DNA of 59,195 nucleotides, counting the filler, from Sphacelaria rigidula (taxonomy: Eukaryota): assembly GCA_964200075.2 (NCBI GenBank). It is 7 parts of 7 records of this genome, joined end to end, with 100 filler letters (N's around TTAATTAATTAA, not from the genome) between each part and the next. Parts side by side here need not be neighbours in the genome. Positions count along the whole stretch, not along the records: positions 42,356 to 50,725 come from CAXNAA020011363.1; 6 more parts are not named here. The stretch is one strand, 5' to 3'. Position 1 is the stretch's first letter, and the number at the start of each line of letters is the position of its first letter. Shown here one piece after another: positions 90 through 57,092 of the stretch. A program made the position numbers and the translations under genes. The notes under the pieces were generated by a model. It did no database searches and was not told where the DNA came from. It was given only the letters and a program-made list of their open reading frames with translations.

Positions 90-3000
90 TCGGGAGAACA
101 ACTCCTCCCTCTTACGGGCCATGCTAACTTGGCACCCGGCGATATTTGAGGAATCGCTTCTGCTTCCCTGATGCACATCCCACTCGAAACTTGCGTAACA
201 GAGCCTACCGAGCCCAACGCAACATCTCCGACGGAGTCGGTCCATTGTGTCGATTAACCTTATTTCGATCTCGCTTCTGCGACTCCACCCCAGGCCCACG
301 CCGTGAATACTGCCCGGTCGAATTCTGATCCCCCTGCTGAAAGTCGTCAACGCTCATCACCAGATTGTCGGAATAGTTGCGAGCAAATGTGGAACCAACT
401 GCCGCCACACATGCGTGATGTCAATTTCGACTATCATGGGCCCGGTTGGGAACCAGCAGTTATCCGAGGACTCGGCGATGTCCTGCAACAGTACCAATAC
501 CGATTTTCCCGATCCAAGACGGATCTTGGGCATTGCAAAACGCTGCCCTTTGAGGTCACACTCCAACCCGGAGTCTCGCCAATCTCTTCTCGACCATACC
601 GGACAAACTCAATCCTCACCAAAATAGTAAATGCCATCTTAGATGCATATTTGGGAGCGGGATCAATACAACATTCCTCCTCTCCTTGGGCGTCGCCACT
701 CATGATCGTTCCCAAAAAGGATGGAAACATACGCATAACCGTGAACTACCAACGGTTGGACCACGCTACTGTGGAGGGTAAACTTCCAGTCCCCCGCATT
801 GATGAAGTTTTCGACTCCTTAGGCGAAGCAAAAATATTCAGCACCTTCGACCTCGCTTCTAGATTATTTCAGAATGCTATCCACCCTGACACAGTCCCAC
901 TAACGGCCTTTTGTACTCGTCCGGGCTTTACGAGTGACTCCGAATGCCACAAGGCGCTGCCACTTCTCCAGGATGCTTTCAACGCTTAATGCAACGCGTC
1001 ACAGAGAGCCTCGAGCACATCATCATGTACCTAGATGACGCTGTGATGCGTGAGAGAACCGCGTGCTTAGAGGATCGCGCCGTAGTTCAAAACACCTCAT
1101 GATGGACGTTTTTCAAAACCAATCGGGCCAGTCCCTGCAGGTACCACACCCCTGACCACAACCTCAACACTATCCCTAACCCTAACCCCAACCATAGGGA
1201 TATTCAAATTCCAATACGGTCCTCTAAGCACGCGGTCCTCTAAGCACGCGGTTCTCTAACGCATTACAACGCTATCGCTTTCGATGCCTCACCTATTGCA
1301 CATATCCGCACTCTACGAGAATTTCTATCTCGCTAACGAACGCACGACTTGAAACTGTCTCCGTCCAAAGCTCGCCTTGATGCGACTGACTTGGATTTCC
1401 TGGGGCATTCCATTCCGCCAGCAGACCTACATCCGGATACAAAGTCAGGGCGATGCCTGACTTGCCGATGCCGACCAACATTTCTCAACTTTGCTCATCG
1501 TTGAGCGGACTATCCTACAACCCCATTTTTTTGCCGAACGTATCCGAACGGATTCGCCCCTTACTGAGTTACTCGAGAAAGGAGCCGTGGTTGCCTTCAC
1601 CACCGATATGAAAAATATTACCCGCGAATTGCTGAAAGCGCTTACCGAAGAGCCGGTACTCTTCTTTCCTGATTGGGAGGCAGTACAAGACGGCCCTCGC
1701 TTTTTCCAACTCCACACTGACGTCAGCACAGACGGATTTGGAGGATTTTTTCATCAACCCCAGGTTGATGGCTTCATTCGACCCATCCTATACATCAACC
1801 GCCCCACCCTGCCCAACGAGGCCAACTGGAGCCCGCTAGAATTGGAAGGCGGAGAAATCACCTGGGCTATTAAGCGCCTGCCACAACATCTGTTTCACGT
1901 GACCTTTGAGATTTACACGGATCATGGGACACTCGAAACAACTCGCCAAGGTTGGCGAACACAACTCGCGTGTACAACGATGGTTGAAGTTTTTAACAGC
2001 ACACCAGTATACCATTAAGCACCGTCCAGGCAGAACCAAGGGGAACGCTGATCTTCTTCCCCGACTACCCCTGCCACCTACGGTAGCGGATTCCAGCCTG
2101 GCTTGCCGTTTCACGGAACCCGATGAACCGATGATTTACACGATTAGACGTTTTCAACGCCCGTTTATGCCCTCGACCTTCAGCGCCCAAAAACTGGTGT
2201 GCACATGGGAGGACCTTGCCCTCTACCATAGGACGCCGTCTTGGGTGGTTTAAAGCCCACAACCTCCGATTTCGTCGATTTCCGCACTGTTGGTCCTCGC
2301 GCGCAGCTTTTCACGGAGACACCTCCGGTCATCCACCTAATCCCCGACAACACGCGCTCCCGGTCTGCCGATCGCACCACCCCCCTGAGTGTCCCGCCGC
2401 CCCCGATAACACCCGCAAATCCCACGAGCCACGCAGCACCGGTCCCACAGACTCGCACGCAACGTTCCGCGAAAACTACTGCAACGTGCACCACGCGCCG
2501 CGGACAATCTTCGCTGCGCACTGCTACAACACCGTCGCCAGTAACGGCACCACCAAAACCTACCGCTCCTGAGCATGGAGCCGACGACTCGGCCCCTGCT
2601 CCCGGGGCAGATGTTGACGTCGGTATTTCTGCACCGTCACCTATTCCCCCGCTGCCTACCCCCAGCATGTTTGGTCGGCTCTCCAGCGGAAGGTCAACTG
2701 CGCGAGTTTCTCGCCAGCTACTCTGACCGCAATTGGGCTCGCGAACAAAACGAGGAGCCTTGATGTCGCGTAGCCATCCGGCACTTACAGCTTGGCTGTA
2801 TAGTTCCTTTTGCATCCCCCCTTCTGGCCCCGGTTAGCACACTATCACCACCAGATATCTCTGGCGTATACGAACTCGTGCGTAATGGCACCACTTTCAC
2901 TACGGAGGAAGGGGCATAACTACTAGTGCGTCGCCCCACGCTTGTGACGGGCGCACTTTCCGTCTCAACCACGGGACGCCACGCACGACTACTCGATAAC

Positions 3001-4247
3001 GAGCCAACAAGCATATATGTTCCATAATTGATGCACCCCTCGGTCATAAACGGCTGTCACACAGACTTGCCATGTCACCTTGGCATCACTCGCACCCTAT
3101 CGCTCCTGGAACGCTCCTACTGGTGGGTTTGCATGGAAATTTCCACCCGCTTCTGGGTTCGGCGATGCTTCAAATGCCAAGCTCGAAAACCTTCACAGCA
3201 GACACTGGCCCGTCATCTCTATGGAACTCCCCAACGCCCCGGGCCACCTTGTGCCTCTTGACTACTTTGGCCCTCTACCGGCCACGGGTCGCGGTAACAT
3301 CCACACCTTACCCTTCACTGACCGCTTCAGCCGCCATGCGTCCATGTACGCAGTTATCGCGGCAGATTTCACTGCCGCTGGAACAGCCGATATATTGGCC
3401 CACGACTACATTAAGCACTACGGTTGCCCGAAGTGACTCGGTTCAGACAATGGTAAACAAATTGCCCAGATCTCTCTGATGAGCTTTACAAGCTCCTCAG
3501 CATCCGCAAGATTGCCACGAGCGCCTACCACCCGAAGGGTAACGGTGATACCGAAAGCGTTGATCACACCATGGCCCAGATGCTCTCTATGGTCGTCGAT
3601 GACCGCCAAAATGACTGGGACCTATGTCTCTCGCACACCATGTTGTCCTACGGCAACTCGGTTAACGCCGCTCCAGCCCTTGCCCCGGACAACCTCCATC
3701 TTGGACGTTACCCTCGGCTGCTCATCGCCGTATTTGAGCGTCACACGTTCGATGGCCACCAAGGATTGGATCAGGATCAGATATCCTATCACGAACTAGC
3801 GCATTCACGACAACGCAAAGCGTTTACCCTCATGCACGAACAATGCGCTACCAAAGCCTCGCACCTTGAGAGATCTAACACTGCTCTCTTCAATCTCATG
3901 CACAAACGCCCCAACTGGAAAGTTGCTGAGTGGGTTTGGATCTATAACAGTTTGTCGACCACCCGCCAAGACACGAGCAAGGCAGCCAATGAAACAATTT
4001 TAACGACAAATTTGTCCCTCAGTTGGACAGGACCATTCAAGATCCTGACAGTCGGATGATAAACCCGTTGGCGACAAATTGCTCTATCTCGACCTGCCTC
4101 GCGACCTCCGGGGCAAGGGCACCAAACCCCGCGTCTCCGTGTGCAGATACAAACCCTGCACGAACCCGCATGATACAAGTGACATGCCCAAGTACTTGCC
4201 TGCCGGACTGACACAGTACGTTCTCAACAGCTACTCGACCAAGTCCC
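90..4247 (+). mobile_element. Degenerate Ty3/Gypsy LTR-retrotransposon pol region (RT, RNase H, integrase), frameshifted and 3'-truncated
   Basis: RT motifs SSSPWASPLMIVPKKDGNIRITVNYQRL, P.PRIDEVFDSLGEAKIFSTFDL and MYLDD (1025-1039). RNase H motifs FQLHTDVS..GFGG, NWSPLELE and FEIYTDH (1491-2040). Integrase zinc finger H..H..C..C (3028-3190), integrase core (3200-3700) and GPF module WTGPFKIL (about 4023-4050). Domain order RT-RH-INT is Gypsy-type. Many stops and frameshifts; no LTR was identified. Confidence 0.93.
1042..1268. mobile_element. 227-bp non-autonomous TIR element with TGT...ACA ends and 4-bp TSD ACGC (Ginger-like MITE) inserted in the RT gene
   Basis: About 38-bp imperfect TIRs (TGTGATGCGTGAGAGAACCGCGTGCTTAGAGGA / TCCTCTAAGCACGCGGTTCTCTAACGCATTACA). 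ACGC occurs at 1038-1041 and 1269-1272. Removing the element restores the RT frame YLDDAIAFDASP. Confidence 0.88.
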
Positions 4248-10527: not shown

Positions 10528-10986
10528 TGAACGGCTCCCATTAGAGTCGGTCTTAGGCCAACTCTAATGGGAGCCGTTCAAAATTGCTATTGGAAACTGC
10601 CTTGTGGGCCCACCTCCGTCAAATTACGCCCGCAAAGAGGGCTAGGCGGATGTTGACGCCTTGGAATGGCTTGCTCTACTCGTTGAAGCCGTTCAATGGC
10701 AACTTTGCATTTCCCGCTGACCGCAGTTCTGTTTTTGGTCAAACGAGGCCAAACACAGACTTTCAATGAAAAACGGCCAGGTGATTAAAATTTCCCCCTT
10801 GTATTTAATCACTGAACCGTTTTTGAATTGAAAATGCGTGTTTGGCCAAAAATGAAAGCGCGGCCAGCTGGATGTGCAAAGTTGCCCTGGAACGGTCTCA
10901 ACGAGTAGAGCAAGTCATTCCAAGGCGTCAACATCCGCCTAGCCCTCTTTGCGGGCGTAATTTGACGGAGAAGGGCCCAAAAGGCA
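10528..10986. mobile_element. Palindromic foldback/MITE-like element: small hairpin 10528-10580 plus about 390-bp hairpin 10598-10986
   Basis: 20-bp perfect arms TGAACGGCTCCCATTAGAGT / ACTCTAATGGGAGCCGTTCA. 55-bp perfect inverted match of 10614-10668 with 10916-10970, with imperfect pairing continuing to a centre near 10795. Confidence 0.85.
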
Positions 10987-11429
10987 CTTTTGTACGGAAA
11001 TTTAGAACAGCTTAGAAATGGCCTTATATTGCATATTTTCCCTCAAGTATAGTATAAATAGTGGCCAAATTTTGATCACTCGACCGTTCGTTATCGAAAA
11101 CGCAAGTTTTACTTTTCGAATACACTTCCTCATTGCCCCATCCTGTCTGTTACCAGATCTCCTACCTACTCAATATTCCTCTGGTAGAATGGCTTGCGAT
11201 GATGCGTCCTTCCGCATCATTCTTTCATGAGTGGGCACATTGTAACATAGTTGTTTCATGAGGGCTTAGCAATACGTGTCTTTACCTCTTTTTGTCCTTG
11301 TAATCATATATACCCAGTATATTCCAAGCGCCTGTGAAAAAAAGGCGCACGACAGTCCCGACTGCCTTGTACATACTGTACATAGTATCTTACATAATGT
11401 GTGAATATAAACGTGGTAATACCACTCAC

Positions 11430-22062: not shown

Positions 22063-22546
22063 GCCTCTTTTAAACCGCAGCAGTACAAAAGGCAATGTCG
22101 TGACACAGACCGTACCGGCGCGTGCAGCTGCTTCGTTGCAAAGGTGGTTCATAAATCGCGCGAAGTCTAGAAGACGAGAAATGGAACAAGTGGAGGAATG
22201 CTCTGCGGCGGTAACAATCAAGATGCGATATGTACTGAACGGTGCTGCACTTGTTGATGTACAGTACCGCACGGTGATACTGTACGGCAGGTGCAGCATA
22301 CTTCAGTACATACTGCATCTTAATGTTAATGTACAATACCGCACGGTGATACTGTGCGATGGATGTAGCACAGTTCAGTACATATCGCATGTTGATTGCC
22401 ACCGCCACACGGCATTCCGAATATTCTTTCATTAACTTGCCTTTTGAGCTACGCGCAATTGACGAACCATCTATGCAACGAAGCTGCTGCACGCGCAGAC
22501 ACGGTCTGCGTCACGACATCGTCCACTGGTGCGGTTTCAAAAAGGC
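22063..22546. mobile_element. About 480-bp foldback element (long imperfect palindrome)
   Basis: 22063-22250 pairs with 22363-22546 (GTCGTGACACAGACCGT...GCTTCGTTGCA / TGCAACGAAGC...ACGGTCTGCGTCACGAC; GCGATATGTACTGAAC / GTTCAGTACATATCGC). The centre carries a direct repeat, GTACA.TACCGCACGGTGATACTGT, twice. Confidence 0.82.
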
Positions 22547-23330: not shown

Positions 23331-23841
23331 ATACCACACCGGGTAAATTGGGGGCGGATACCGAAGGTACCCTACATGTCGATACAGTGGGGGGTCCTCT
23401 TTAAGAGAGGTATGTGCCAAACTATGAAAAATTCTCCTATATCGGGCTTTCTCTTATTTCGATTTAACAGCGGTTTCTCTTAAATCGAGATACAGGCTAA
23501 AGAGAAAACCCCTCTCTAATCGAATATATATGCTTCACAGTACAGTAGGGGCTTCCGACAGGCTATTGAGTGAAGAGAGAGACTCCTATTTCGTGGTACG
23601 TTTCACCAGAGTGCTTGGGAGGAGCATTCTGAGCGCCATAGTGTGTTGGTTCGTATCCCGTGGGAGAACATATCCGCGGGACTAACTGCAACTTGTCGTT
23701 GCGTCTCACTGTTTCGTCAGGTCAAGACAACGATGTGCAGACAGCAGGACGGGCAACCCTGACTGGGTCCTTGTCCAGAGGAACCACTTTCTTTTCGGTC
23801 GAAAGACATTCCAGCAGTAGAAGTGGACCTGAAAATAAATA

Positions 23842-24138
23842 CCAGCATCACCCCACACCGTCACAGACTGAAGTGCGATGGCCTGTGAGGTGGGATCTCT
23901 CTGTGAGTTTCCACGGTTGACTCCGGACTCCCTCCATGACACATGGACGACAAACCAGTTGCAACTCAGAGTCACCTCACGACGGTATACCGCAGGTGTC
24001 ATGAAGTTGGCCTCCACAGACGCGGCATTTACGACCCGTGGAACGCTGGGAGTCCGGCGTCAATTGTGGAAACTCAAAGAGCGATCCCGCCACACAGGGC
24101 GTCGCACTTCAGAGTGTGACGATGTGGGGTGATGCTGG
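23842..24138. mobile_element. Tc1/mariner-type MITE with about 95-bp TIRs and TA flanks
   Basis: TA-CCAGCATCACCCCACA...TGTGGGGTGATGCTGG-TA. The arms pair through GAGTTTCCAC/GTGGAAACTC and CCGGACTCCC/GGGAGTCCGG. Confidence 0.8.
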
Positions 24139-24854
24139 TACTGTATTGACCCTCCTCACCGAGCTGCGTGTGGGTAGTGCTGTAGCTGGGTGCAGGAAGG
24201 ACGACTTTTCCAACTAGTTCTACAGGCGGGTGGGGAGGGGGGTCCGATTTAAAGGAAAATGGAAAAAGTGGGTTCGATTCAAGAGAGGGGTGTGCCAAGC
24301 CATTTCAACCTCTCTTGAATCGGGTATTCTCTCATTCCGGACTCTCTTCAATCGGACCCCCCACTGCACCCGGAATACCCTGTAGTACTGCGTATTTTGG
24401 TAGTCGGTACCCTGACAACCCTGGGGTACTGAGTGCTCCACATACCCGGAAAATTATAGACCTCCAGGGTCCTCTACCCTACCCTATAATATTTCCGATT
24501 TCTCATGCTTGCACGCACAAATCACCACCACACAGCGGCGGGGACAGCGATTAATCAGCCAAGTCTGTGGCCATCATCCACGATGTATGCTGTAAGAGCT
24601 GTGCTCACCCTGCAACAAAGCAACACACCCTTGACCAGAGATGAAGGGAATAACCTGCCCCCCGCGACGGCCGCCACAGACGGCCTTTGTACGCCAGCGC
24701 ACACCTTGTCAGGCTTTTTCAGACGTCATCCGCCGGCATCAACACCCCAGCCTTGTTCTATTCCTGTTCCTTTCGTGGTCTAATATATAGGACCATCGTT
24801 TCCTCCCTACTGTCCACGAGCTGGGCCAGCCGAGAAGCGATTCTGCAGTTTGCA

Positions 24855-34283: not shown

Positions 34284-34732
34284 AACAGCCGATCATCAAA
34301 TTTGAGAATGGAGCTTCTCATTGAGGATGAGAACCCGGAAGATTCAAATCTTCGTACACACACCAAATCTTCGAAATATGGTTCCATTCCTTCATCTACT
34401 GGTGGTAGCTATTGATAACTGCTACACGCCCTACGAATTTTGATTTCGATAATCGAAATATTGTGGTCCTCGATGAAAAAAGACATGTCAGGGAATTCAG
34501 GTGATAATTAGGTGACCACCTGAATTTCCCAAAATTGTTTCTTGATCTAGGACCACAGCATTTCGACTATCGAAATCCAAATTTGTAGGGCATGTAGCAG
34601 TTGCCAATAACTACCAGTAGGTGAAGGAATCGAACCATATTTTGAAGATTTGGTGTGGATACGAAGATTTCAATCCTACGGGTTCTCACCCTCAATGAAA
34701 AGCTCCATCCTCAATTTCGATGATCGGCTGTT
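34284..34732. mobile_element. About 450-bp near-complete palindrome (foldback/MITE)
   Basis: AACAGCCGATCATC...GAATTCAGGTG pairs with CACCTGAATT...GATGATCGGCTGTT around a short loop near 34509. Confidence 0.87.
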
Positions 34733-42355: not shown

Positions 42356-43119
42356 CCGTCGAAAACCCGGCGTGCTCCGTCCCGGCTATGTAGGGATGCG
42401 AGGTCACCGGTCATATTACTATGGCATGCATGATCATGAGTACCCCCCCACACACACGCCCGCCGCCGCCACCGTGACCCCTTCTCTCGTCGTGTCGACC
42501 GGTGTAGGTCCGGCGGGTATTGTACATCATTCGAGAGGAGTACGAAACGTTTTTAGAGGCAGATGGGAAAGGCAACGGATCGGGCCACGGTAGCACCTCG
42601 GTCGTGCCCATGTCTCCTTCGCAACCAAATGCACGTGAGGTTCTGCTCTGTTTTTTCTGCGCTACCCTTGGTCATCCTGGCGGAATGAAAGGCGAATTGC
42701 GAAGTTTTTTGTTCGTGTTGCTTCATCACGCATGCGCGCGCGATTCTCTTCCTCGTCTGATAAATGTCTGCTACCATAGGTGTTGATTTTGTACGCGGAC
42801 TGTATTCACATATTACTCTGTGAGTGTGTGTTTTCTCTTTTCTTCGTTTACTCTGTCTATTTTGTTCTGCCTTTTCTGTTTTCTTCACTTGACTTCAGCG
42901 AGTGTTTCCTTCTCGGTTTTATCTCGGATACGCACGTCTGTCATGTGGATGATGACCACTACTAGATCATGACTCCTGGAGGATCAGTTGAAGTACGACA
43001 ATCAAGAGTATGCCGGGCAAGAAGTTAGCCCATCGCTGTTACAGTATGTTGTGTACTGAAGAGTCTCCCTGCGGACGTGGCAGTCCTTTGACGGTTCGGA
43101 CGAATCATCGCCGATTCGA

Positions 43120-43345
43120 ATCACCAAATCCACGATTTCTCAGGTCTGATTGCTCGAAAGAGAGGAAAAAAATTACCTCTTGTCAAAAAGGTCTCCACGC
43201 AATTTTTGCGCCATTCCACGTGCCTGGGCTACGCATACCTGAGTTGCTACGCTGAAAACAAAGCCCACATTGATTCATACGGTACGAATCAATCACACTG
43301 AAATCAAGTGATTTCCAGACGAAGCATTGAATCGTCCGACCCGTG
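43120..43345 (+). repeat. Dispersed repeat family C, with inverted copies at about 47500-47730 and 48720-48880
   Basis: Shared TTTTGCGCCATTCCACG, CGCTGAAAACAAAGCCCA and TTGATTC.TAC..GTACGAATCAAT motifs. Confidence 0.75.
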
Positions 43346-44849
43346 GATCCTTGCATTATATAAGACGAGAAAATGCGTATCCTCAGTGTGCGCCTGAAAA
43401 GCATGTATGTTATGTTATGGTATGGTATGGTACAGTATGTGTGTATGAATGTGTCATGTGTTATGTACGTATGTATATGTTGCGTATGCATTGCGTATGT
43501 ACGAAGGTATGCACATGTGTATCAACGCGTCAACAAATCTACGTTCGGATATACTCATGTATGCGTTTAAAGTAGTGCACATCATTCATTTCCCTTACGT
43601 ACGTGTTTGCTGCGCTTTTTATTTTTATTTTTTTGTTCTTTTTTCTGCGTTATGTGCGTCTCGGTGTTTTTCATCGTTTTTAATCACAAAAAAAAAAAAA
43701 AATAGCGTCGAGTGCCCAGCAACGCGCTCGAGGGGAAATCAAGGGAGTCGTGGGTGAAGGCGGAGCGGGTGGGGGCGGGATCAACACCTCCCTTACGCTC
43801 ACCGGAGTGCTCGGCGGCAAGTCGGGAGCAATCGACTATGGCAGGTTTTTTTTTGTCCCCATCACTGTTGTGCTGTGTATGTGTGTGCGTGCGGATGATG
43901 TGTCCACGCCAAGATCGTTTTTGTGCATGCGATGGACCCTTTTCGAACCGATGACGGAAAAATGACGATCTACGATTGGCATTTTCTAGAGGTGTATCAA
44001 AGTCTAGATTCCCGGTGTATTTCACAATAATGTTCAGTTGAATATATCAGGAGCCTCGAGCTTGACATATAGGCTGGTTCACGCTTCTCACCCAAAATTA
44101 TGTCATCAGCAAATGCCTTTCGCGATACCTACCCAATAGTCACATGCATGATACCATACTGACCACCATGGGAAGCTGAAGAGCGTGACATAGCCGGACT
44201 TGTGTGTAAGGCCATAGTGGTAGCGCCAGGGGCAAAAAGGTATACCGACCAATCAGCGCCCGTCAAATTTCCGAGATCGGAATTACGAGTTCCAAGCCAA
44301 ATTTTCACCCAATCTCCACATGCTTCGAATCGGTGTAACCGTCATCGGCTCGGAAATCTAACGGAAAAATCGTGTTTTAAACCGGTTTACTACGGGGGTC
44401 GAAGTATACCCGAAACCGTGATGTTTCGGTGATGTCGGGTGTTGGCGTCGTCTAATTTCCACTAATGATACGCACGAAACACCCAGGAAGCCTCTTGACG
44501 GTGTTCCCTATATCTGTTGTGGAAAAGCTCAGATCGCTCTCAAACTTGGCAGTTCCGTAGGTATTGATGCCCCAAGTTGAAAACATGTGTTACTGGCAAG
44601 ATTTCAAGGCTTCTCCGTTCTCTACCGGCTTCCGGGGCCCCAGTACAAGTACCCCCGGAAGGCGGTACACAATGACTCAAACGAAGAAAGCATAATGAAA
44701 TGATGCGCCCCGGGATAGTCCAAGGAATACATGCACAAAGTTTGGTGGAGAAACTCGAAAACCTCATGCAGTCTTTCTTGCCTTGACATGAAATTCACCC
44801 CAAAATACGTCTCCACACTAAAACCAAGTAGTTAGGAGTTGCACGTTTC

Positions 44850-47160
44850 AAGCCCACGTCCTCCACAAACGCGCAAACCTTCACGCCGATATCAGGAGTT
44901 AGATCCTGAAAATATGCACAAATAGGCTATGCGTCATTACGCAACTTTTTGTGGACGGTCTTTCTTTACTTCTTGAGTTTCTCACCGCTTTTCGGGCGTC
45001 CGACGGGATCCAAGTCGTTTTCTCACTGGCACTATGTTTTTTTATTTCGCGCACAATTTGTCGCCGCACAACCCAGGAGAAGACCCCACTAAATTTCGTC
45101 GCAAAACTCGATCGACTGATGCTTGAATTTTCATGTTCACGTCGAAGAAGGCCCAAAAACGCCGTTTTGGTACAAAAATCAAATAGTTTGCGGTTTCATC
45201 GCGGTACGCCAAGGTTTATCGCACAAAAGCGAAAAACCTCACGCCGTTTTAAGGAGTTGGACCCTGAAATTTTCACACCCTGGACAACACAATATCTAAT
45301 ATATATATTGCCCGCTCAATATGTCGACGCGTTGGGTGGTCAATATATATGGGGCGAGCAATATGATGGCACGAGAGAGGGTCAATACATATTGGGCGAG
45401 CAATATGTCATGGCTCGCGACATGCAATATATATCGACCGGAGAATATATCACGACGCGCGCCACCTCAATATATATTGGCCGAGTAATATGTTGGTGCG
45501 AGAAGGCACCAATATATATATATATATTATATTTGTCGAGTAATATGTTGACTGCCACACGAGGTCAATGTATATTGATGATTCGATATACTCAAGACCC
45601 GAAGCGCCAATATATATTGCCGCCCCAATATGTCGTGCGCCAATGCGTCCAATATATATTAGGCAGACAATACACGAGGGAACGGACGGTCACAATACAT
45701 ATTGGTGTCGCAATATATTTTGATTTTCAGCATGTAGATTGCAAAGTGTATTGGAATTAGTATGGTGGGCAACTCTATGTTCGCGGGCGCCATTGAAATG
45801 TGTGTCACCACATGCCGAAAAACGCTCAATATATTCCTCCGCGAGCGTGTTCAATATATATTGGCTGCACAATAGCTATGCGATGAGCGTGCGCAATATA
45901 TATTGGGAAAGCAATATTTTTTGCATGGATTCTGTTCAATATATATTATGGTAACAAATGTGCTACGCATCACTTCGACTCAACATATATTGACACTTCA
46001 ATACATACACGGCCGGCATGCACAATATATATTGAATGTTTGATTCCCGGAGCAAAGGTAAGTCCAATATATTGCGTCATACATTACTTCATGACCATGA
46101 CACGAGCAACATATGTTGTTGCTCCAATGTCTCCGAGGACATTTCAACACAATATATATATTGAACGGACAATATTTGAGCTGGCTCCAATACAAAGTAT
46201 TGGTATCATATTGGAACATATTGTGTTGTCCAGGGTATAAGCAACACAGCCCTGGTGACCACAGGGGTAACAAAAGGCGCATATCGACCCGCGTTTTCTG
46301 TCATCGTGATGTTTAGCCAAGATATATTAATTAGATGGTGGGAAGGCGATGGGCGGCCCCGCACCGGTGGCCACTTAGGTATCAGAAGGCATATATACCA
46401 GGTCGCTTCTTCCGTCACCATATTTTCTAACTAGTACGAAATATATGTTTATATATATATGTATGTGTGTGTCAAACGCATTCGACTACTCTCCGTAGTA
46501 ATGCACGCGAACATCTGCGGCTCCCTTTGAAGCTTTTCCCAATCTGCACGGGCTCTGGCATCTATCGCGTCTGGATCTTTCTTAGAGCGTACACCATACT
46601 TATGATATCCAGTATATATTGACCGGTCAACATGTTCTTATCAGTGTGACTCTAATATATATTAGTCGTGCAATATGTGCTGTCGCTCACGCCGCCCCAA
46701 TATATATTGATGGGGCAATATGTGTTCAGCCCCACAGTACCAATATATGTTGGGCGAGCAATATGTATGTATGCAGTCCCACGGCACCAATATATATTGG
46801 GCGCGCAATACGTGTGCAGTCCAAGGGTACCAATATATATATTACGTCGGCAATATATCGCAAAATTCCAATATGATCGTCTAATATACATTGGAAACAT
46901 CCTGTATTGTCCAGGGTGTGGAAACTTTTCACAGCTGTTCTATGGGTGATTAATCAATTTTGAACGAACAACTTTTTCTCTTACCGTTTCACGGGGGTCC
47001 GATTGGATACATGTTTTCCCGAAAAAATCCGAAAAACGGTTAAAAAGTCTAGAAATAAAATAAAAAACTCGATCTTCGAAGGGTGCGTTATGACCCATAG
47101 AATATCTGTGCAATTTTTCAGGGTCTAACTCCTTCAAACGGCGGGAGGGTTTGCCGATGA
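44850..47160. mobile_element. Host non-autonomous element (same family as 5748-6200) interrupted by the array element
   Basis: Joining 45273 to about 46930 gives GGAGTTGGACCCTGAAATTTT-CACAGCTGTTCTATGGG. This matches the uninterrupted copies at 44894-44935 and the reverse complement of 47093-47143. Confidence 0.75.
45274..46920. mobile_element. TIR-bounded element carrying a regularly interspaced dual-motif array of about 42-bp period
   Basis: Left end CACACCCTGGACAACACAATAT. Right ends ATATTGTGTTGTCCAGGGT (46218-46236, 19/19) and TGTATTGTCCAGGGTGTG (46903-46920, 17/18). Flanks GAAATTTT / GAAACTTTT. About 18 plus 6 units of CAATATATATTG-N6-CAATAT(G)-N17/18. Confidence 0.85.
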
Positions 47161-49239
47161 GTGTTTTTTGGGTGATGAGCGTGAACCAGCTCGTACCTAT
47201 TTTTAGGCTAAGATACGGTTGTTTTTCTGCAACTGTTGGTGATGCAGCCCAACCCAAAACGGTGCACCACACTCTAAGGTCAAGTATACTAATGGGACGG
47301 ATTCGTGCACCTGACCCAAAGGGTCGTTTTCCCGGTGACGAAAGCTCGCGTTTGGGAGTTTGTACTGTTTTTCGCGAGTTCCAAGAGGGGTTAAGAAGTC
47401 GTCAACACGGTGCTTTTTTCTTCGCATATGTTTGTTTTCCCCGCTTTACGGACATTTCTGGACGAGTGTGTGAATTTTTTGAGAGGAGGATAGGGTGAAT
47501 ACGGATTGATTAAAAAAATATCTGCTTTGAGTGTAATTGATTCGTACGGGTACGAATCAATTTATCCTTGGGCTTTGTTTTCAGCGGTACACCCCAGGTA
47601 TGCGGAACTCAGGCGGGTGAAGTAGCGCAAAATTTGTGCAGAGGCGTTTTTGACCCAACGTCACCTTATTTTTTCAATCTCATTGTTGGAGATATCAGGC
47701 CTCCTCAAAAATCGTATATTTGGTTTTTCGAACCAGCGATGATTCCTTCCATTCTCGAAATTTTAGGTGTAAAGTCGGGTGCTAGGAATTTGATGGAGCA
47801 TTCTGGTGCAAGGGTTCTTGCGTCTCTCGACGGAACCAGCTCGTGCTTACTCACAAGTTATCGTGTATATCAACATGCGCAAAGCCTAGTGTAAAATTGA
47901 TCGATTGATTGTCGCACTGTAACTGACCCCCCATGGATCCAGTTGTGGTCACATGATGGACGTACCCAAGATGAAAAACAATACTCAAACATTCGCTGGA
48001 GAAGAAGAGGAAACAGAACGATATAGTAGACTAAGACGAAAAAAGAAGAAATTAATACGAAGAAATTGATGAGGAGAACAGATAAGGAAAAAATATGAAA
48101 AGAAAAGAAATGAAGAGAAAAAAAAAAGTGCCCACGAAACCTGTACGATAAAAGAGAAGAGTCAGATTACAATTTCACACTGGTGTCGCCAATGTACAGT
48201 AGGACTTCGCTGTTTAGGGCCGTGTTCGAACGAGACAAGAAAAGAAAGAACGCGCAGTGAGAGTAACAGTGATTCCGGCGTTTTTTTTCTTTTCTCCTCT
48301 CATCCGTCCAATCGGATGCCCATGAGCTCTCAACCAATCGCAAGGGCAAGAAAAAAGTAAAATCGCCACAACCGTCGGAATCATCCTTACTCTCAGGGGA
48401 TACGTACTCGCTTTTCTTGTCTCGTCAAAACGTGCCCTTACATGGTGGTACGGAGTGACAACGTGGCACTGCCGAAGAGGGTAATTTCCGGGTCTCCCTG
48501 AAAACGGTTGCTGTCGTGGCCCTCATGCCAGAGAATCTCCAGAGCGACGAGCCTTACTGTCTCTCTTGATATCTACAGTTTGGTCGTAGGCGGCGGACAG
48601 AGCTTGTACGGAGTGTCCCAGCGGGCATTTTTGGTGGCTTTGCTGTCTTGAGCGTGTTCTACCGTAGGAACCCGTTACCTAGGGCACCAGAGATTCGTCT
48701 AAAAAGGTGTGAGGCTTGCAAGGGTCGGACAAATAATGATTCGTCTGGAAATTACTTGGTTTTAGTATAATGAGTCGACTCGTGATGAATCAACCCCTAG
48801 GCTTTATTTCAGCGTTGCAACCCAGGCACACGCAGCCCAGACACGTGGAATGGCGCAAAAGTGGTGTGGATACCCCTTGGACCAGCGGTCAACCCTTTAT
48901 TCTCTCTTTTGGGCAATCTGGCCGAAGAAACAGTGAATTTGGCCATTTTGAGTCGTGATGATTTGTCCCAACCGTGGAGGCTTGTCGGGGCCGCTCACTC
49001 ATGCCAATTGCGGGCCGGCGTCTGTGGTGTGTACTCCTTCTTGTCTGGTTTTCATGTGTATACAGTATACAGGTATTCATTATGCTCATACATTACGTGT
49101 CTTTCATATCAAAATAGATCTGGGTGTACACATCCAAATCGATATACATGTATGTGCACTGTGCTTAGATATGGTTACGCATATCCATCCAGATATAGAT
49201 ATACAAGGTTAGTTTCGGGAGGTTGATACGGGCCTCCCA

Positions 49240-50480
49240 GGGGTGACGCAATTCGAAAATATATGAAGAGAGGCTGTTGTATCTCAAAGTACAGTAGTGA
49301 TCGTGGCTGTACAAAACATCACATGTGTCATCGGATGGTGGCGCCGGATAAGGTTCACCAACTTGAGTAACACGGATGTGGAGGTTGTACAATGGTTGAG
49401 CCGCAATAATTTCGACGTGTGTGGCATATGCGTATGGATGCGACATGAGCTGAAGGTAATGTTGAACCCTGTTGTACGTTTGGTCGGGACAACCAGCAGT
49501 CCGTATCTTTTCGAAATTAGAGCCATTTGCGTATCGGAGACCGGAACAGACTTGGAACATCTCTTCCTCGGGTAGAGTAGTGGAAAGTGTGAGTGGGTGG
49601 CAGAGGTGGGCGCGACGGACACACGTCGTTCGGAAATATGGGAATTCGGACGGAGACTGACGGCGGAACCGCCGGCGTAGGACATGTGTGGTATTCCCGA
49701 GGTGTGAGAGTGCGAAATAGCTCTCGTGCCACAGACACGACAACGGGAGATACTCCCCGGAAATTGGAATGCGTGCAACATTCTTGGCATGTTATTTGTC
49801 ACTTGGGAAGCTCGCGGGCATGTTCTTTCAGTACTTCGCTTTTTCCCTGCACATGCGAGTCTGCACTTCTCCGGACTAAAGACTGGGTTTTGGCTGGCGG
49901 TTGGAATGCGTGGAACATTCCTGGCATGCTCTTTCTCACTTGGGAAGCTCGCGGATATGTTTTTCCAGTGCTTCGCCTTTTCGCTGCACGTGATGGTTGC
50001 GTTTTTTTTTTAAAGCCGGCCGACAGTTTCACCGGGCCCTTTCCATGGGTCTTATTTTTCACCGGGCCATTTCCCAACAGGGTAATTGTGTTTTGTGGCA
50101 AAACATTCCTGTGCTGCCGTGGTGCAGTGCCTTGTTCAACTCGCCAACGGCCCATTGCACGGTCTTGTGTTTGCTGGTGACTAATGCCAAGGCAATGTTC
50201 AATCATTTTCAACTGCTTTGCTCTTATGTCCTCGTGACATTGGCGGCATGACCGGTGTGTTCGCGCTCCCAAATTAACGAGAACCCGACAAAGAGAAACA
50301 AGGGAGGGAAATATCTCGCCAAATTTTTCCATGATCTTCAAGAGACTTTCGTGGTTGGGGTTCCTGTTTCAACTCTTCATGATCTTGAAAAGGCTTTTGT
50401 GGTTTGGGATCGACAGCCCGCGGAAAAGGGCCAGTTTGAGCGACTTTCGGTGGCCACAACACGCGCCGCAGGTATCAGAT
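49240..50480 (-). pseudogene. Degenerate ORF ending in an OTU-like cysteine protease domain, probably transposon- or virus-derived
   Basis: HYLQLMSHPYAYATHVEIIAAQPLYNLHIRV...CDVLYSHDHYCTL fits the OTU C-terminal pattern (Y...M......E+.A...LY...I.V...Y...HY). A frameshifted LFRS remnant lies upstream. Further upstream is an intronless, Cys/basic-rich region with stops and a 137-bp-offset duplication (49764 and 49901). Confidence 0.6.
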
Positions 50481-50650
50481 GACACCCAAACCTGAACGGT
50501 AATGTACCGCTGAACCTTCCTAGTTCGCTGCACAAGAAAGCGCGGGAAAACATGCCTTGCCGCTAGAGAAAACTCGGCAAAAGTGGCGAAGAATGTGAAA
50601 TAATACATGTACATATATATCCATGAACATAGATGAAGATATACCTATAC

Positions 50651-50869: not shown

Positions 50870-52453
50870 TACTCCTAATAGAGATACCTCTCACATTCTG
50901 GCGCTCATTACGTTTCTTCCGCAGCTCACACACTCACACACACATACTCCAGGGGGGCGCCAATCCCTGGTTGGCGAACGAGCAAGTTACGACTGCGGTG
51001 CACATGTTTGCTGTGAACCGCGCCCACGACGAGGCGATGAAACTTTCCGGGGCAGCTCCTTCGACGCTGGACCACGTACGGTGTGCTCCCCACCATATGT
51101 AGCAGGAACTACGACTTTGTTAGAACGCGGTGGATCACTGTGCTGTCTGAATGGATCCTTGTCATTCGGCACAAAGCGTTCTTAACTCAGCACCGTCCCT
51201 CCCTACTCCTTTGCTGATAATGCCCTGGGCTGGTGTCTGTCCAAGTCACCAAGTTTGGCTATACACCCTTGAGCTGTGCTGCCAACATCGGCATTCTGAT
51301 ATCAGTCTCGTTCCTGCTGGCCGCGGGGGCTAGCGACAAGTGTTATGGTCGCGTCTAGGCGCTTCTTCTCTGTGGATGGCAGTGGAGAATGGCCATGAGA
51401 ATATTGTGCGCATGCTCGTGGACGCTGGTATGGTGATCGGCGGGGGTTCAGCGGTAATCCTGGGAGCAATGTGTCGCGCATCCGCGAAGCGACAGGCTAG
51501 AACCCTCGACATGCTGCTTGATATACAGGTCGAAGCAAGGAAGAAGTATTAAAGTCGGCAACTTGCCGAATACATCCCGATTCTTCACCATGCGGCCATG
51601 CACGGGTCACTCGCCACGGTGCATGTTTGTCTCGCGGCCGGTGCGGACGAAACTTCCGCCAACGGCACAGGATTGCGTGCGAGCCAACTTATGGGAACGA
51701 ACTCCCCGCCAAACACCCAGAACCAAGCGAAGCTGGGACAAGCCGTCGGTCGAGTGCTCCAGCGGGAACCCGCGTTCCGTGCTCTATCTTGGGCGTGGCC
51801 TCCTAAGACGGATGCTGCTGGTGCCGTTGCCTCTGTGGCCACGGCCCTACCCGCCGGCAGGAAGCTGAAGGCTCGTGTTCGCGTGTTTAGGCTAAGGAAT
51901 GATGACGATAGGTTCTCCACGACACGCTTTGCCAGGTGAGGCACCGATGTTTTGTTTTTGCGCCGACACGTGGCCGAAGGAGCGTCCACCGGTGTGCGAC
52001 ATCCCGTTGGTGTTGGAGGTTTTGGTCGGTCGCTGAGCCCCACGCGGACATCATTTGGTAAAGACGCAGAACCGTTGCGTGTATGCTCCTTCCACTTCGG
52101 GGGGGAATGGTTACTGGGACGTTGAACTTTAAAATGTGGCAAGTTCGAACGTTCAAACTTTCCAGACATCCGTTCACCTCGAAGTACACGTATAGTGCTC
52201 CAGTTCCCTGGATCCCCTGGATCTAGTTCAAACTCTTGATTCCACAAAATGACGAACTTCTGGAAATATCGTGCTTGGCTACCCTCATGTGATCTGCTCG
52301 CTCGGCTTCAACTGTTTACTACTGCTGTTTATCGCTCTTGCCTGGTCTGGCAGGTATTCTCAGAAATTACGGAAACCGGAACACGTTCCTCTGGGGGCGC
52401 GTGGCAAGACATGTTGCGCGACATGTTCCAGGGCGCGGGGCTACTTTCCTTGA
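50870..52453 (+). pseudogene. Ankyrin-repeat pseudogene, tandem paralog of 55273-57092
   Basis: Exon-1 remnant GGANPWLANEQVTTAVH...AHDEAMKL..AAPSTLDH (about 50950-51075). Exon 2 (about 51246-51935) has FGYTPL, SSLWMAVENGHENIVRMLVDAG and REPAFRALSWAWP, with a frameshift near 51350 and a TAA near 51550. Exon 3 begins at 52354 (RYSQK). The 5' end is cut by a family A repeat and the contig end. Confidence 0.85.
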
Positions 52454-54843: not shown

Positions 54844-55272
54844 GAAAGTTGAAACTGAAACGCAACGCACATGCGGCAGCTGTGAATGATTCTCATTTAT
54901 CCTGCTTCATGCCACTGCTTCGTTCACCCGGAGGTGACCTCGAGTAGTCATCGATGCGACCCAGTCAGATAATCGACCGAGACTGCACCTGAGCTTCCGC
55001 TTTTCTTTGCGCTGAGGTCGGACCACGAATATTTAACCTGCACAGATTTTTTCCGTGTATGGCGTTTTTTTCTCTCGGAACAGAACAGGCGATTGCCTTG
55101 TGCCAAGCGGGGCGGCAGCGAGGGTGACGGGTGCGAAAGTTTGGTGTCACGAGGGAGCTGGTGTGGGCGCGACCTCTCGACGCTACCTGTCAGGTCCTGG
55201 GGGTCTACCTCGACGTGGCACGGCGGTATTGGTCGTTCCCGCGCGTCTGAGCAACCCCCAAAGTTTCAGACG

Positions 55273-57092
55273 ATGAACCCTGAATTTGAGCTTAACCTGG
55301 AAGCGGGAATCGGAAACCTTCGTGCAATCGACCGGCTGCTGAGGGTCGGAGTGTGCGTCGATGGATCTGATGACCTCCCCACGAGGCCCCTAGTGATCGC
55401 TGCCGAACTGGGCCGGATCGACGCGCTCAAAATGCTGATCGGGCGAGGTGCCGACCTGGAAGCCGCCGTCCCTCAACAAACCCTCAACGACGACGGAATC
55501 GCCGTTATTCCTCTTGGATCGCGCGCCCTGCACGCCGCCGTCATCGGGCAACAAATCGACTCTGTACGCTGCCTCCTGACAGCCGGCGCAAAGCCTGATG
55601 TCATCAACTCAGAAGGCGATACGCCTCTGATGTTGGCATGGGATTCGCCGGAGATAACCGCAGAGCTCTTGAAGGGGGGCGCCAACCCCGCTTTTGCGAA
55701 CAACGATGGTACGATCGCGCTGCACGTGCATGCGTTGAACGGCGCCCACGACGAGGTGATGAGGCTTCTTGTCGAGGCCGCTCCTCCCACAGTGAACCAG
55801 GTGGGCTCGCCTCGGGGTGTGGCAGGGGGCACCGCAGCTTCGTGTAGACGAGCGCGTCGAATTGCCGCGGCGCGTCTGAAAAGCTCCTCCTGGTCGCCGA
55901 CACATGGCATTCTTGGCTCATCATCGTCCCTCCCTACTGCTTCGCTGATTCCATTCACTGCCTTTGACCCTTTTACCCACTCCATGCTGGCTCCATGAAC
56001 TCCTTTTTCCCAGCGCAACGACTTCGGTTACACGCCTTTGTGTTATGCTGCGGAAGAGGGCAACGAGGTGGCCGTCGCGCTCTTGCTGGCCGCGGGGGCT
56101 AGAGACAGGGATGTTCAGGTGCACGGGGGCATGTCTTCTCTTTGGACGGCAATGGACGAAGGTCACGAGAACGTCGTGCGCATGATAGTTGACGCTGGCA
56201 TGGGCGTGATCGGCGGAACGATGGCCCTCTTGGGAGCTATGTGCCGCGCATCGGAGAAGCGGCAGGCGAGAACCCTCGACTTGCTGCTTGGTGTGGAGGG
56301 AGAGGCGAGGAAAAAGCGCTGGGCCCGAGAAGTCGCGGGCAATCTCCCGATTCTTCACCACGTTGCCATGCACGGGTCGCTCGCCGCGGTGCAAGTTTGT
56401 CTCGCGGCCGGCGCGGACGAACATTTCGTCAACGGCACAGGAGTCAGGGCCAGCGACCTTGCCGGAATGTACGCTCCGCCAAAGATGAAGAATGCAGACA
56501 AGCTCAGCGATGCCATTCGTCGATTGCTCCAGCGGGGACCTGCGTGCCGTGCCCGGTCTTGGGTGTGGCCGCCGCTCAACGCACATGCTGCCGGCGGGAA
56601 GCCGAGACCTCCTACGGCTGTTGCCGTTCGCGTGTTTCGGCCGAGGAACAATCGGTTGTTCATGACACGCTTTGCCCGGTGAGAAAAGGGACTTATTGTT
56701 TCCGCAGATGATTGTTGCGTGGGCGACAGAGCCTTCGCTGTTGTGCGATGTTTGGTTGGTGCTGAAAGTAACAGACGATTGGTCGCTGTGCCCAGGCCGA
56801 CAGTGTTTGGTGAGCAGGCGGGACATTTGCTCGTGTGGCATGCATGTTTACTCTTTCGGGGAAGGACTGTCAGGACGTTAAGCTGCGCAATAGAGCAAGT
56901 ACGAACTCTTCAGACATAGTGGTCCCGTCTCTCTGATGCCCCGGTTCTAGTTCAAACTGCAGATTTCAGACCGGCGAGACTGGTGTATCTTAGGGTATGC
57001 CACCCTCGTGTGTGGTATCCGCTTGCGCGGGTTTGACTCCTCGCTGCTGTTGTCCTTCTCCCCTCCCTCAAGCCAGGTATTCGCAGAAGTGA
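55273..57092 (+). CDS. Ankyrin-repeat protein, about 402 aa, three coding exons, with C-terminal RGPA.RARSW.WP motif
   Basis: Exons 55273-55800, 56014-56678 and 57077-57092 (RYSQK stop) with canonical splice sites and phases 0 and 2. Ankyrin repeats include PLVIAAELGRIDALKMLIGRGADLE, ALHAAVIGQQIDSVRCLLTAGAKPD, GDTPLMLA and GYTPLCYAAEEGNEVAVALLLAAGA. Confidence 0.9.

Follow-up and report, generated by a model that had tools for sequence, protein, structure and literature searches.

In the window (the whole stretch of DNA analysed here, 59,195 nucleotides from Sphacelaria rigidula, made up of seven contigs with N linkers between them), a periodic array fills a non-coding DNA transposon of 1,647 bp at positions 45274–46920 (contig G000:C11363). 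The transposon is bounded by terminal inverted repeats (TIRs) and a target-site duplication (TSD). The features of the region, with the strand where one was assigned, are as follows.

44076–47196: unrelated multi-copy host repeat that carries the inserted element; its flanks are 44076–45273 and 46921–47196
45266–45273, plus strand: left 8-bp TSD, GAAATTTT, matching the right copy at 7 of 8 positions
45274–45295, plus strand: left TIR, 22 bp; the first 16 bp of the family consensus equal both ends of a hAT family
45297–45716: first part of array block 1 (1a), 10 units with a period of 42.3 bp on average (position scan, autocorrelation)
45717–45851: non-periodic interruption, common to the copies, with a partial motif near 45827
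45852–46187: second part of array block 1 (1b), 8 units with a period of 42.3 bp on average (position scan, autocorrelation)
46218–46239, minus strand: internal TIR-like site, beginning TATA rather than CACA
46240–46609: central non-coding stretch of unique sequence, including an (AT)n tract near 46440–46470
46610–46856: array block 2, with 6 units in this copy (7 in the consensus) and a 43-bp period
46899–46920, minus strand: right TIR, 22 bp
46921–46928, plus strand: right 8-bp TSD, GAAACTTT

Elsewhere in the window lie decayed pieces of what we take to be an LTR-retrotransposon pol region (258–4059, with reverse transcriptase, RNase H and integrase-like frames), and ankyrin-repeat-like reading frames (54973–56682 and 50951–51803). 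A second copy of the latter, 68% identical, was found elsewhere on the same contig. Long self-inverted elements at 34284–34732, 10572–11012, 22063–22546 and 23840–24140 are probably other MITEs, and a further dispersed repeat lies on both sides of the region in inverted copies (43091–43345 vs. 47523–47745 and 48719–48975).

The array lies where a preliminary description had placed it, and a position scan recovered the units listed there within 0–2 bp. With at most 1 mismatch, the 12-bp palindrome CAATATATATTG occurs 18 times in the window, always between 45341 and 46799, as against a mean of 0.09 and a maximum of 2 in shuffled sequences. Autocorrelation of the window copy peaked at 42, 85 and 127 bp (0.386 vs. 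0.313 for the best shuffle). Each unit is built of a 12-bp palindrome, N6, CAATAT and N18–19, 42–43 bp in total, so that the order palindrome-N6-CAATAT given earlier stands, but the long spacer measured 18–19 nt rather than 17–18 nt. Likewise, the earlier figure of ∼24 units is correct for the window copy (10 + 8 + 6), but 25 units are present in the family consensus, the window copy having lost the one that opens block 2. Blocks 1 and 2 run in the same direction. The unit at 45510 is distorted by an (AT)n expansion and that at 46065 by a shortened motif.

The block-1 spacers had been described as lacking obvious similarity. This holds for ungapped comparison between units, where identity was that of random sequence (0.276 vs. 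0.257 expected), but gapped comparison of the block-1a spacers left a small residual excess (0.39 vs. 0.32). The block-2 spacers keep a clear similarity to one another (0.47), which shows a tandem origin. A stop-to-stop frame of 285 aa (44903–45760) spans host repeat and array and shows the periodicity of the repeat, and we do not read it as a gene. The array RNA folds better than shuffled sequences (z −4.85), a value that the palindromes alone would yield, and an Rfam search returned one match (E 0.89), outside the array.

The proposal that the array sits inside a TIR element was borne out by the 22-bp TIRs and the 8-bp TSD. When the ends of 23 copies were picked blind to the TSD, 10 of them had an exact 8-bp duplication, with a mean identity of 0.90 at 8 bp vs. 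0.17–0.39 at other lengths; duplications of 2–7 and 9–12 bp were exact in at most 1 of the 23. An empty site of the host repeat was found at L164, in which the 8 TSD positions occur once and which the flanks of the element match contiguously (79% and 72%). The 8-bp TSD of a non-autonomous hAT element is seen both across the 23 copies and at the empty site. Public contigs continue from the left flank of the element into host-type sequence. Target sites tend to RAAWWTTY, in a set preselected for at least 6 of 8 TSD matches. At the internal TIR-like site (46218–46239), 28 bp match an intronic TIR-like site of the hAT family at 89%, and no TSD of its own was found around this site in any copy examined.

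Exact matches to the 14-bp TIR core number 2,098 across the genome (1 for the control), and those to the 22-bp TIR 167 (0 for the control). From the 167 exact ends and 0.039 substitutions per TIR site we would expect ∼400 ends, hence an estimate of roughly 200 genome copies of the array element. The copies are 79–87% identical to the window copy over 30 loci, the best 30 of 40 scored among 786 candidates, so that the sample leans to similar copies. Their flanks are unrelated to one another, and the element is bounded by TIRs in each. A 4.6-kb span with exact 22-bp TIRs at both ends (G000:C11147:2062-6685) is either an insertion-bearing copy or a longer relative; its contig is absent from the hAT match lists of the genome. 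A different repeat family, whose ends are 76–86% alike, occurs at 49195–50620 of the window and at L061:2063-3294, where it is inserted into an AT run of the array element.

Most other matches to the TIR are short MITEs of ∼106–170 bp that carry no array; the array was present at 6 of the first 30 TIR places. Since these short elements share the TIR, mobility does not in every case require the array. Short MITEs of two abundant families at least, ∼137 and 170 bp long, were noted (L032, L035, L037-L040, L044, L054-L056 and L059); they share the TIR and the 8-bp TSD, and a small number of inverted CTATTG/CAATAG sites occur in them. Another family, seen at L169:707-1788 and L229:480-1930, has a related TIR, CACACCCTGTACAACT, and internal repeats of its own.

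The content of the array was then compared between copies, 24 of the 27 long copies being aligned and three with nested insertions being left out. In the 600 unit slots of the 24 copies, 23 units were missing and 576 of the 577 scored best fitted the consensus spacer of the same position, with one fitting another. Adjacent units stood in consensus order in 412 of 422 pairs, and the 10 exceptions were forward skips, that is, deletions. The six insertions of at least 15 bp in the aligned copies were all (AT)n, and array content varied between copies by unit losses only. An alignment-free scan of the loci examined gave 694 motif matches in 40 loci, of which 641 scored at least 0.7 against the known spacers, 9 scored 0.6–0.7 and 44 scored below 0.6. 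Rescoring of 22 of the 46 lowest-scoring rows identified 9 as opposite-strand readings of known sequence (37–41 of 42); the other 13 scored 26–32 and were, by eye, expanded AT runs, joints of insertions, diverged copies and two motifs standing alone. The remaining 24 low rows look like one recurring opposite-strand reading, and one unit in the diverged right block of L167 had no certain placement. Loci found through the TIR alone agree with fixed spacers, despite the lean of the sample to similar copies, and contigs of two other organisms carry the same spacers in 29 and 22 of 30 bins. Neither gain nor reordering of spacers was detected in the 24 aligned copies or the 40 loci. Polar gain or loss of spacers, which the preliminary description had put forward as the thing to look for, thus gave way to a fixed order with unit losses.

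When the spacers were compared with 206 loci without the element (777 kb), 1 match was found at 2 mismatches vs. 0 for the shuffled spacers, and 14 vs. 7 at 3 mismatches, with one shuffle in each case, which says little either way. A search against phages gave one match, confined to an (AT)n run, and the array pattern had 0 matches in viral contigs. Among the public records listed as carrying the sequence, none is registered as RNA.

The same genome holds a multi-copy hAT transposase family, both ends of which are the 16-bp TIR of the element, the consensus ends being identical. In L169 it is found upstream of a spliced transposase gene, at a distance of ∼1 kb. Of 12 contigs that have the hAT first-exon region or its flank, 8 open with the TIR, on differing flanks (seven contigs and C9129), and the TIR closes 9 of 10 C-terminal hAT matches examined, homology stopping at the TIR. 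One copy, G000:C9129:1078-7856, has both hAT ends and a TSD matching at 7 of 8 positions; it lacks an exon found in L169 and is therefore defective, and counting the segment missing from it, the family would be ∼8 kb long. A TIR beside the hAT gene in L097 and L149 was considered as a hAT end and rejected, because homology continues across it; it is a MITE fragment inside the hAT element.

That the family is a hAT is shown by colinear homology, by PF05699 in its relatives and by a profile match to Hermes. The relative P0012 matches the exons of the family colinearly, PF05699 was found in 15 of 16 relatives (12 over the cut-off), and a profile of the relatives matches Hermes with an E of about 1e-28. 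The family protein matched a PF05699 carrier by BLASTP (E 4e-20), and its sole database match bears the JGI label Undpi1, which we take to be Undaria. Against the last exon of the family itself PF05699 scored below the cut-off (4 of 6 at E 0.035–0.08), and P0002 as a single-sequence query against Pfam and PDB gave nothing relevant. At the N-terminus of the protein, two Cys and two His of a C2H2 zinc finger are kept in at least 90% of 20 rows. The model of this region (pLDDT 85.5) aligned with BED structures at Z 2.5–2.6 and an rmsd of 4.4–4.6 over 64–65 residues, values tied with those of unrelated folds; the finger had no Pfam match, and Foldseek on the model returned nothing at E 0.001.

Alignment between the DNA of this hAT family and the array element is confined to TIR-like sites, so the family is a relative or a trans-acting partner rather than a shown parent. 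A direct parent was not found among the hAT families of the genome that were examined, and the more distant hAT relatives L248-L251 have no end of the element's own type. The partner with the same TIR that had been anticipated was therefore found in part, as a hAT family with the 16-bp TIR and 42/43-bp phasing, but not as the direct parent.

A first scan for an array-bearing hAT end, over the first 30 PF05699 loci and 20 and 40 contig stretches, yielded L169 as the only clear case. Both ends of the hAT family show periodicity peaks at 85, 42, 43 and 128 bp (0.42 vs. 0.34–0.35 for the best shuffles), and its left and right arrays share one orientation, as do the two blocks of the element. The hAT unit reads ATYG-N7-CVATRTRTATYG vs. 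ATTG-N6-CAATATATATTG in the element (minus strand); its motif contains GC and has a 7-bp gap, and thereby differs from the N6 motif of the element. This degenerate hAT motif was defined after sequence inspection, so that its shuffle test is lenient. Within the hAT intron, a TIR-like site is followed by a 43-bp array above shuffles (L169:4747-5250), and a second TIR-headed module with a 43-bp period lies in tandem upstream of the hAT left end (L169:1831-2241). In L222 the intron has a second TIR-like site in the same direction (L222:2599 and 3078); the intronic site parallels the internal TIR-like site of the element.

In four sister hAT families with 67–72% protein identity (L244-L247), array-homologous DNA is kept in 4 of 4 and the TIR is intact in three, the end being disrupted in L245. 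The period was clearly above shuffles in L246 and L247, narrowly so in L244, and not above the best shuffle in L245 (0.353 vs. 0.357). One hAT copy (L246:690-974) was seen to have an inverted left-type array as its right end.

Within the array element itself, identity between block-1 units is 0.87 for the motifs vs. 0.276 for the spacers, and the regular intervals, 22 of 22, measure 42 or 43 bp. Given an indel-to-substitution ratio of 0.027, as measured in the inserted copies, the chance that all lengths were kept is ∼0.003 for 0.5 substitutions per site, or 0.09 for 0.2. The (AT)n core of the motif, which accumulated 66 small indels in the inserted copies, is yet fixed in the consensus. Random spacers beside 87% motifs and an unbroken series of 42/43-bp intervals argue that motif and spacing were selected. 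Among the inserted copies, the substitution rate was 0.050 in motifs vs. 0.068 in spacers (p 0.0004 if columns are taken to be independent). In the sister families L244-L246, motif positions were not clearly better kept than spacers (0.70–0.77 vs. 0.65–0.80).

Taken as a whole, these data favour a non-autonomous hAT transposon with a phased transposase-binding array, on which a multimeric transposase would be loaded at 42–43-bp steps; we give this reading a probability of about 0.75. The simpler of the two options raised at the outset, a phased array of transposase-binding sites in which motif and spacing are selected, is thus supported, by a hAT family with the same TIR and the 42/43-bp phasing. 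The other, a processed small-RNA or recombination array, largely fails, since the copies carry the same spacers in the same order and the block-2 spacers derive from one ancestral unit.

The 1.65-kb element would have been moved in trans by a hAT transposase that recognises the TIR and duplicates 8 bp; the hAT family described above is the likely partner. The array would be a fixed cis-acting structure that arose by tandem amplification of one unit, after which the spacers drifted and selection on mobile copies kept three half-sites per unit (the CAATAT/ATATTG palindrome and a third site 6 bp away) and the 42–43-bp period. Most likely, the N-terminal C2H2 (putatively BED-type) zinc fingers of the multimeric transposase would bind these triplets on one face of the helix, loading it near the ends every four helical turns. 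The helical repeat of DNA is 10.5–10.6 bp per turn, and 42–43 bp correspond to four turns.

The same hAT element might instead owe its phased motifs to the host: these could bind a host DNA-binding factor or, as AT tracts that bend DNA or position nucleosomes, set chromatin, and so aid transposition or shield the element. Such a role is unlikely, although the motif is AT-rich and helically phased, the array far exceeds the contact length of one Hermes-type ring, the motif of the element is unlike that of the hAT found, and the Discussion of the Hermes work invokes nucleosomes for distal sites (10.1101/2022.09.16.508221). Against it, the arrays immediately follow a TIR or TIR-like site in every instance observed, AT makes up only part of the hAT motif, and a palindrome with a third site fits BED binding. 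Quite improbable, in our view, is a relic minisatellite with no present function, in which slippage or conversion among AT runs would mimic motif conservation. The ancestry still shared by the block-2 spacers (0.47), the greater number of array-free short MITEs than of array elements and the free loss of units in inserted copies would suit a relic of this kind; random spacers beside 87% motifs, the invariant N6 and the 42/43-bp spacing, an (AT)n length that stays fixed despite a high slippage rate, and the same period in non-alignable arrays would not.

Far less credible still are two further readings. One is a guide array of the TIGR or CRISPR type, or else a cassette array of a recombinase, in which the spacers vary. 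TIGR arrays have repeats of 8–12 nt, spacers of 9 nt (up to 12), units of 36 nt and an adjacent Tas gene with a Nop domain (PMC12045711). The likeness noted in the preliminary description holds for two alternating repeats and two spacers per unit but not for size (42–43 vs. 36 nt), the repeats here being 12 + 6 nt and the spacers 6 + 18–19 nt. A low folding energy could be cited in favour, but it is what palindromes alone would give. The spacers are the same, position by position, in all copies, two other organisms' contigs included, and insertions of at least 15 bp are (AT)n only; the sole linked protein family is hAT; the partner is a DDE transposase; there is no Rfam match of note; and the array is absent from viral contigs. 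The array element is not a new RNA-guided system. The other reading, which we hold equally improbable, is that a further superfamily with 8-bp duplications, KDZ/Zisupton or P, moves the element. KDZ elements of Ectocarpus resemble it in their 8-bp TSDs and tandem repeats in the termini, and its direct parent is not in hand, but the KDZ termini listed begin GGG or CAGTA, and those of P elements CAAGG, with a 7-bp TSD (PMC12477816). CACAC-GTGTG termini with a 21-bp TIR are in the same source those of hAT-2, and the TIR is common to the element and the hAT in one genome. Profiles PF18758 (KDZ) and PF21787 (P element) matched nothing in the genome, in searches in which the controls were silent too, the KDZ search being insensitive.

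The closest described counterpart is hAT-2_Ec32 of Ectocarpus (Repbase hAT-2_ESi), an 8.9-kb family whose ends read CACAC-GTGTG, with TIRs of 21 bp and one intact copy (PMC12477816). Compared by its annotation row, the hAT lineage shares these termini, the ∼21-bp TIR, a spliced transposase gene, a length of the same order (it would be ∼8 kb here) and an 8-bp TSD, which is assumed for hAT-2_Ec32; that row notes neither an array nor a non-autonomous partner (PMC12477816). In maize, what Ds1 and Ds-l4 have in common with the autonomous element is limited to the TIR and short subterminal motifs; they have an 8-bp TSD and hundreds of copies, but as described they carry a few AAACGG hexamers rather than a long periodic array (PMC3260210). 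They are the precedent for partners with nothing but TIRs and motifs in common.

Hermes offers the functional parallel. Its BED domains bind a palindrome cooperatively together with a nearby third site, and a 1-bp shift impairs cleavage (10.1101/2022.09.16.508221). The array element resembles it in the palindromic pair with a third site at exact spacing, and the hAT protein found is homologous. In the account given there, however, Hermes has one triplet, at the left end, and at most 8 further scattered sites per end; ∼200 bp per end are needed in cells, and the role of the further repeats in assembly is described as unclear (10.1101/2022.09.16.508221). In the array element the triplet is repeated 25 times, at a 42–43-bp period and with one orientation shared by both blocks. 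Its regularity exceeds that of conventional, scattered subterminal repeats. A search of open-licence papers gave no description of a triplet array of this length and strict phasing that is retained throughout a lineage; non-autonomous hAT elements as such are well known.

A bolder form of the transposase-binding reading, offered tentatively and to our mind rather unlikely, would extend it to the whole hAT lineage: the transposase might form a helically phased polymer or a string of rings on 10–25 triplets behind each TIR or TIR-like site, and the non-coding element with ∼25 triplets might serve as a trap of high avidity, diverting transposase from the coding elements, the period being set by protein geometry and the motif co-evolving with the zinc finger. 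If true, this would be a more ordered loading of the transpososome than that of Hermes.

For array mining, the element is a caution that a eukaryotic transposon is able to mimic a dual-repeat guide array. For the hAT lineage, it suggests that (i) the phasing kept across non-alignable arrays with two motif variants makes phase-shift and motif-swap tests easy to design; and (ii) these elements may provide a natural version of the question raised by the distal repeats of Hermes, with many triplets at a fixed four-turn period.
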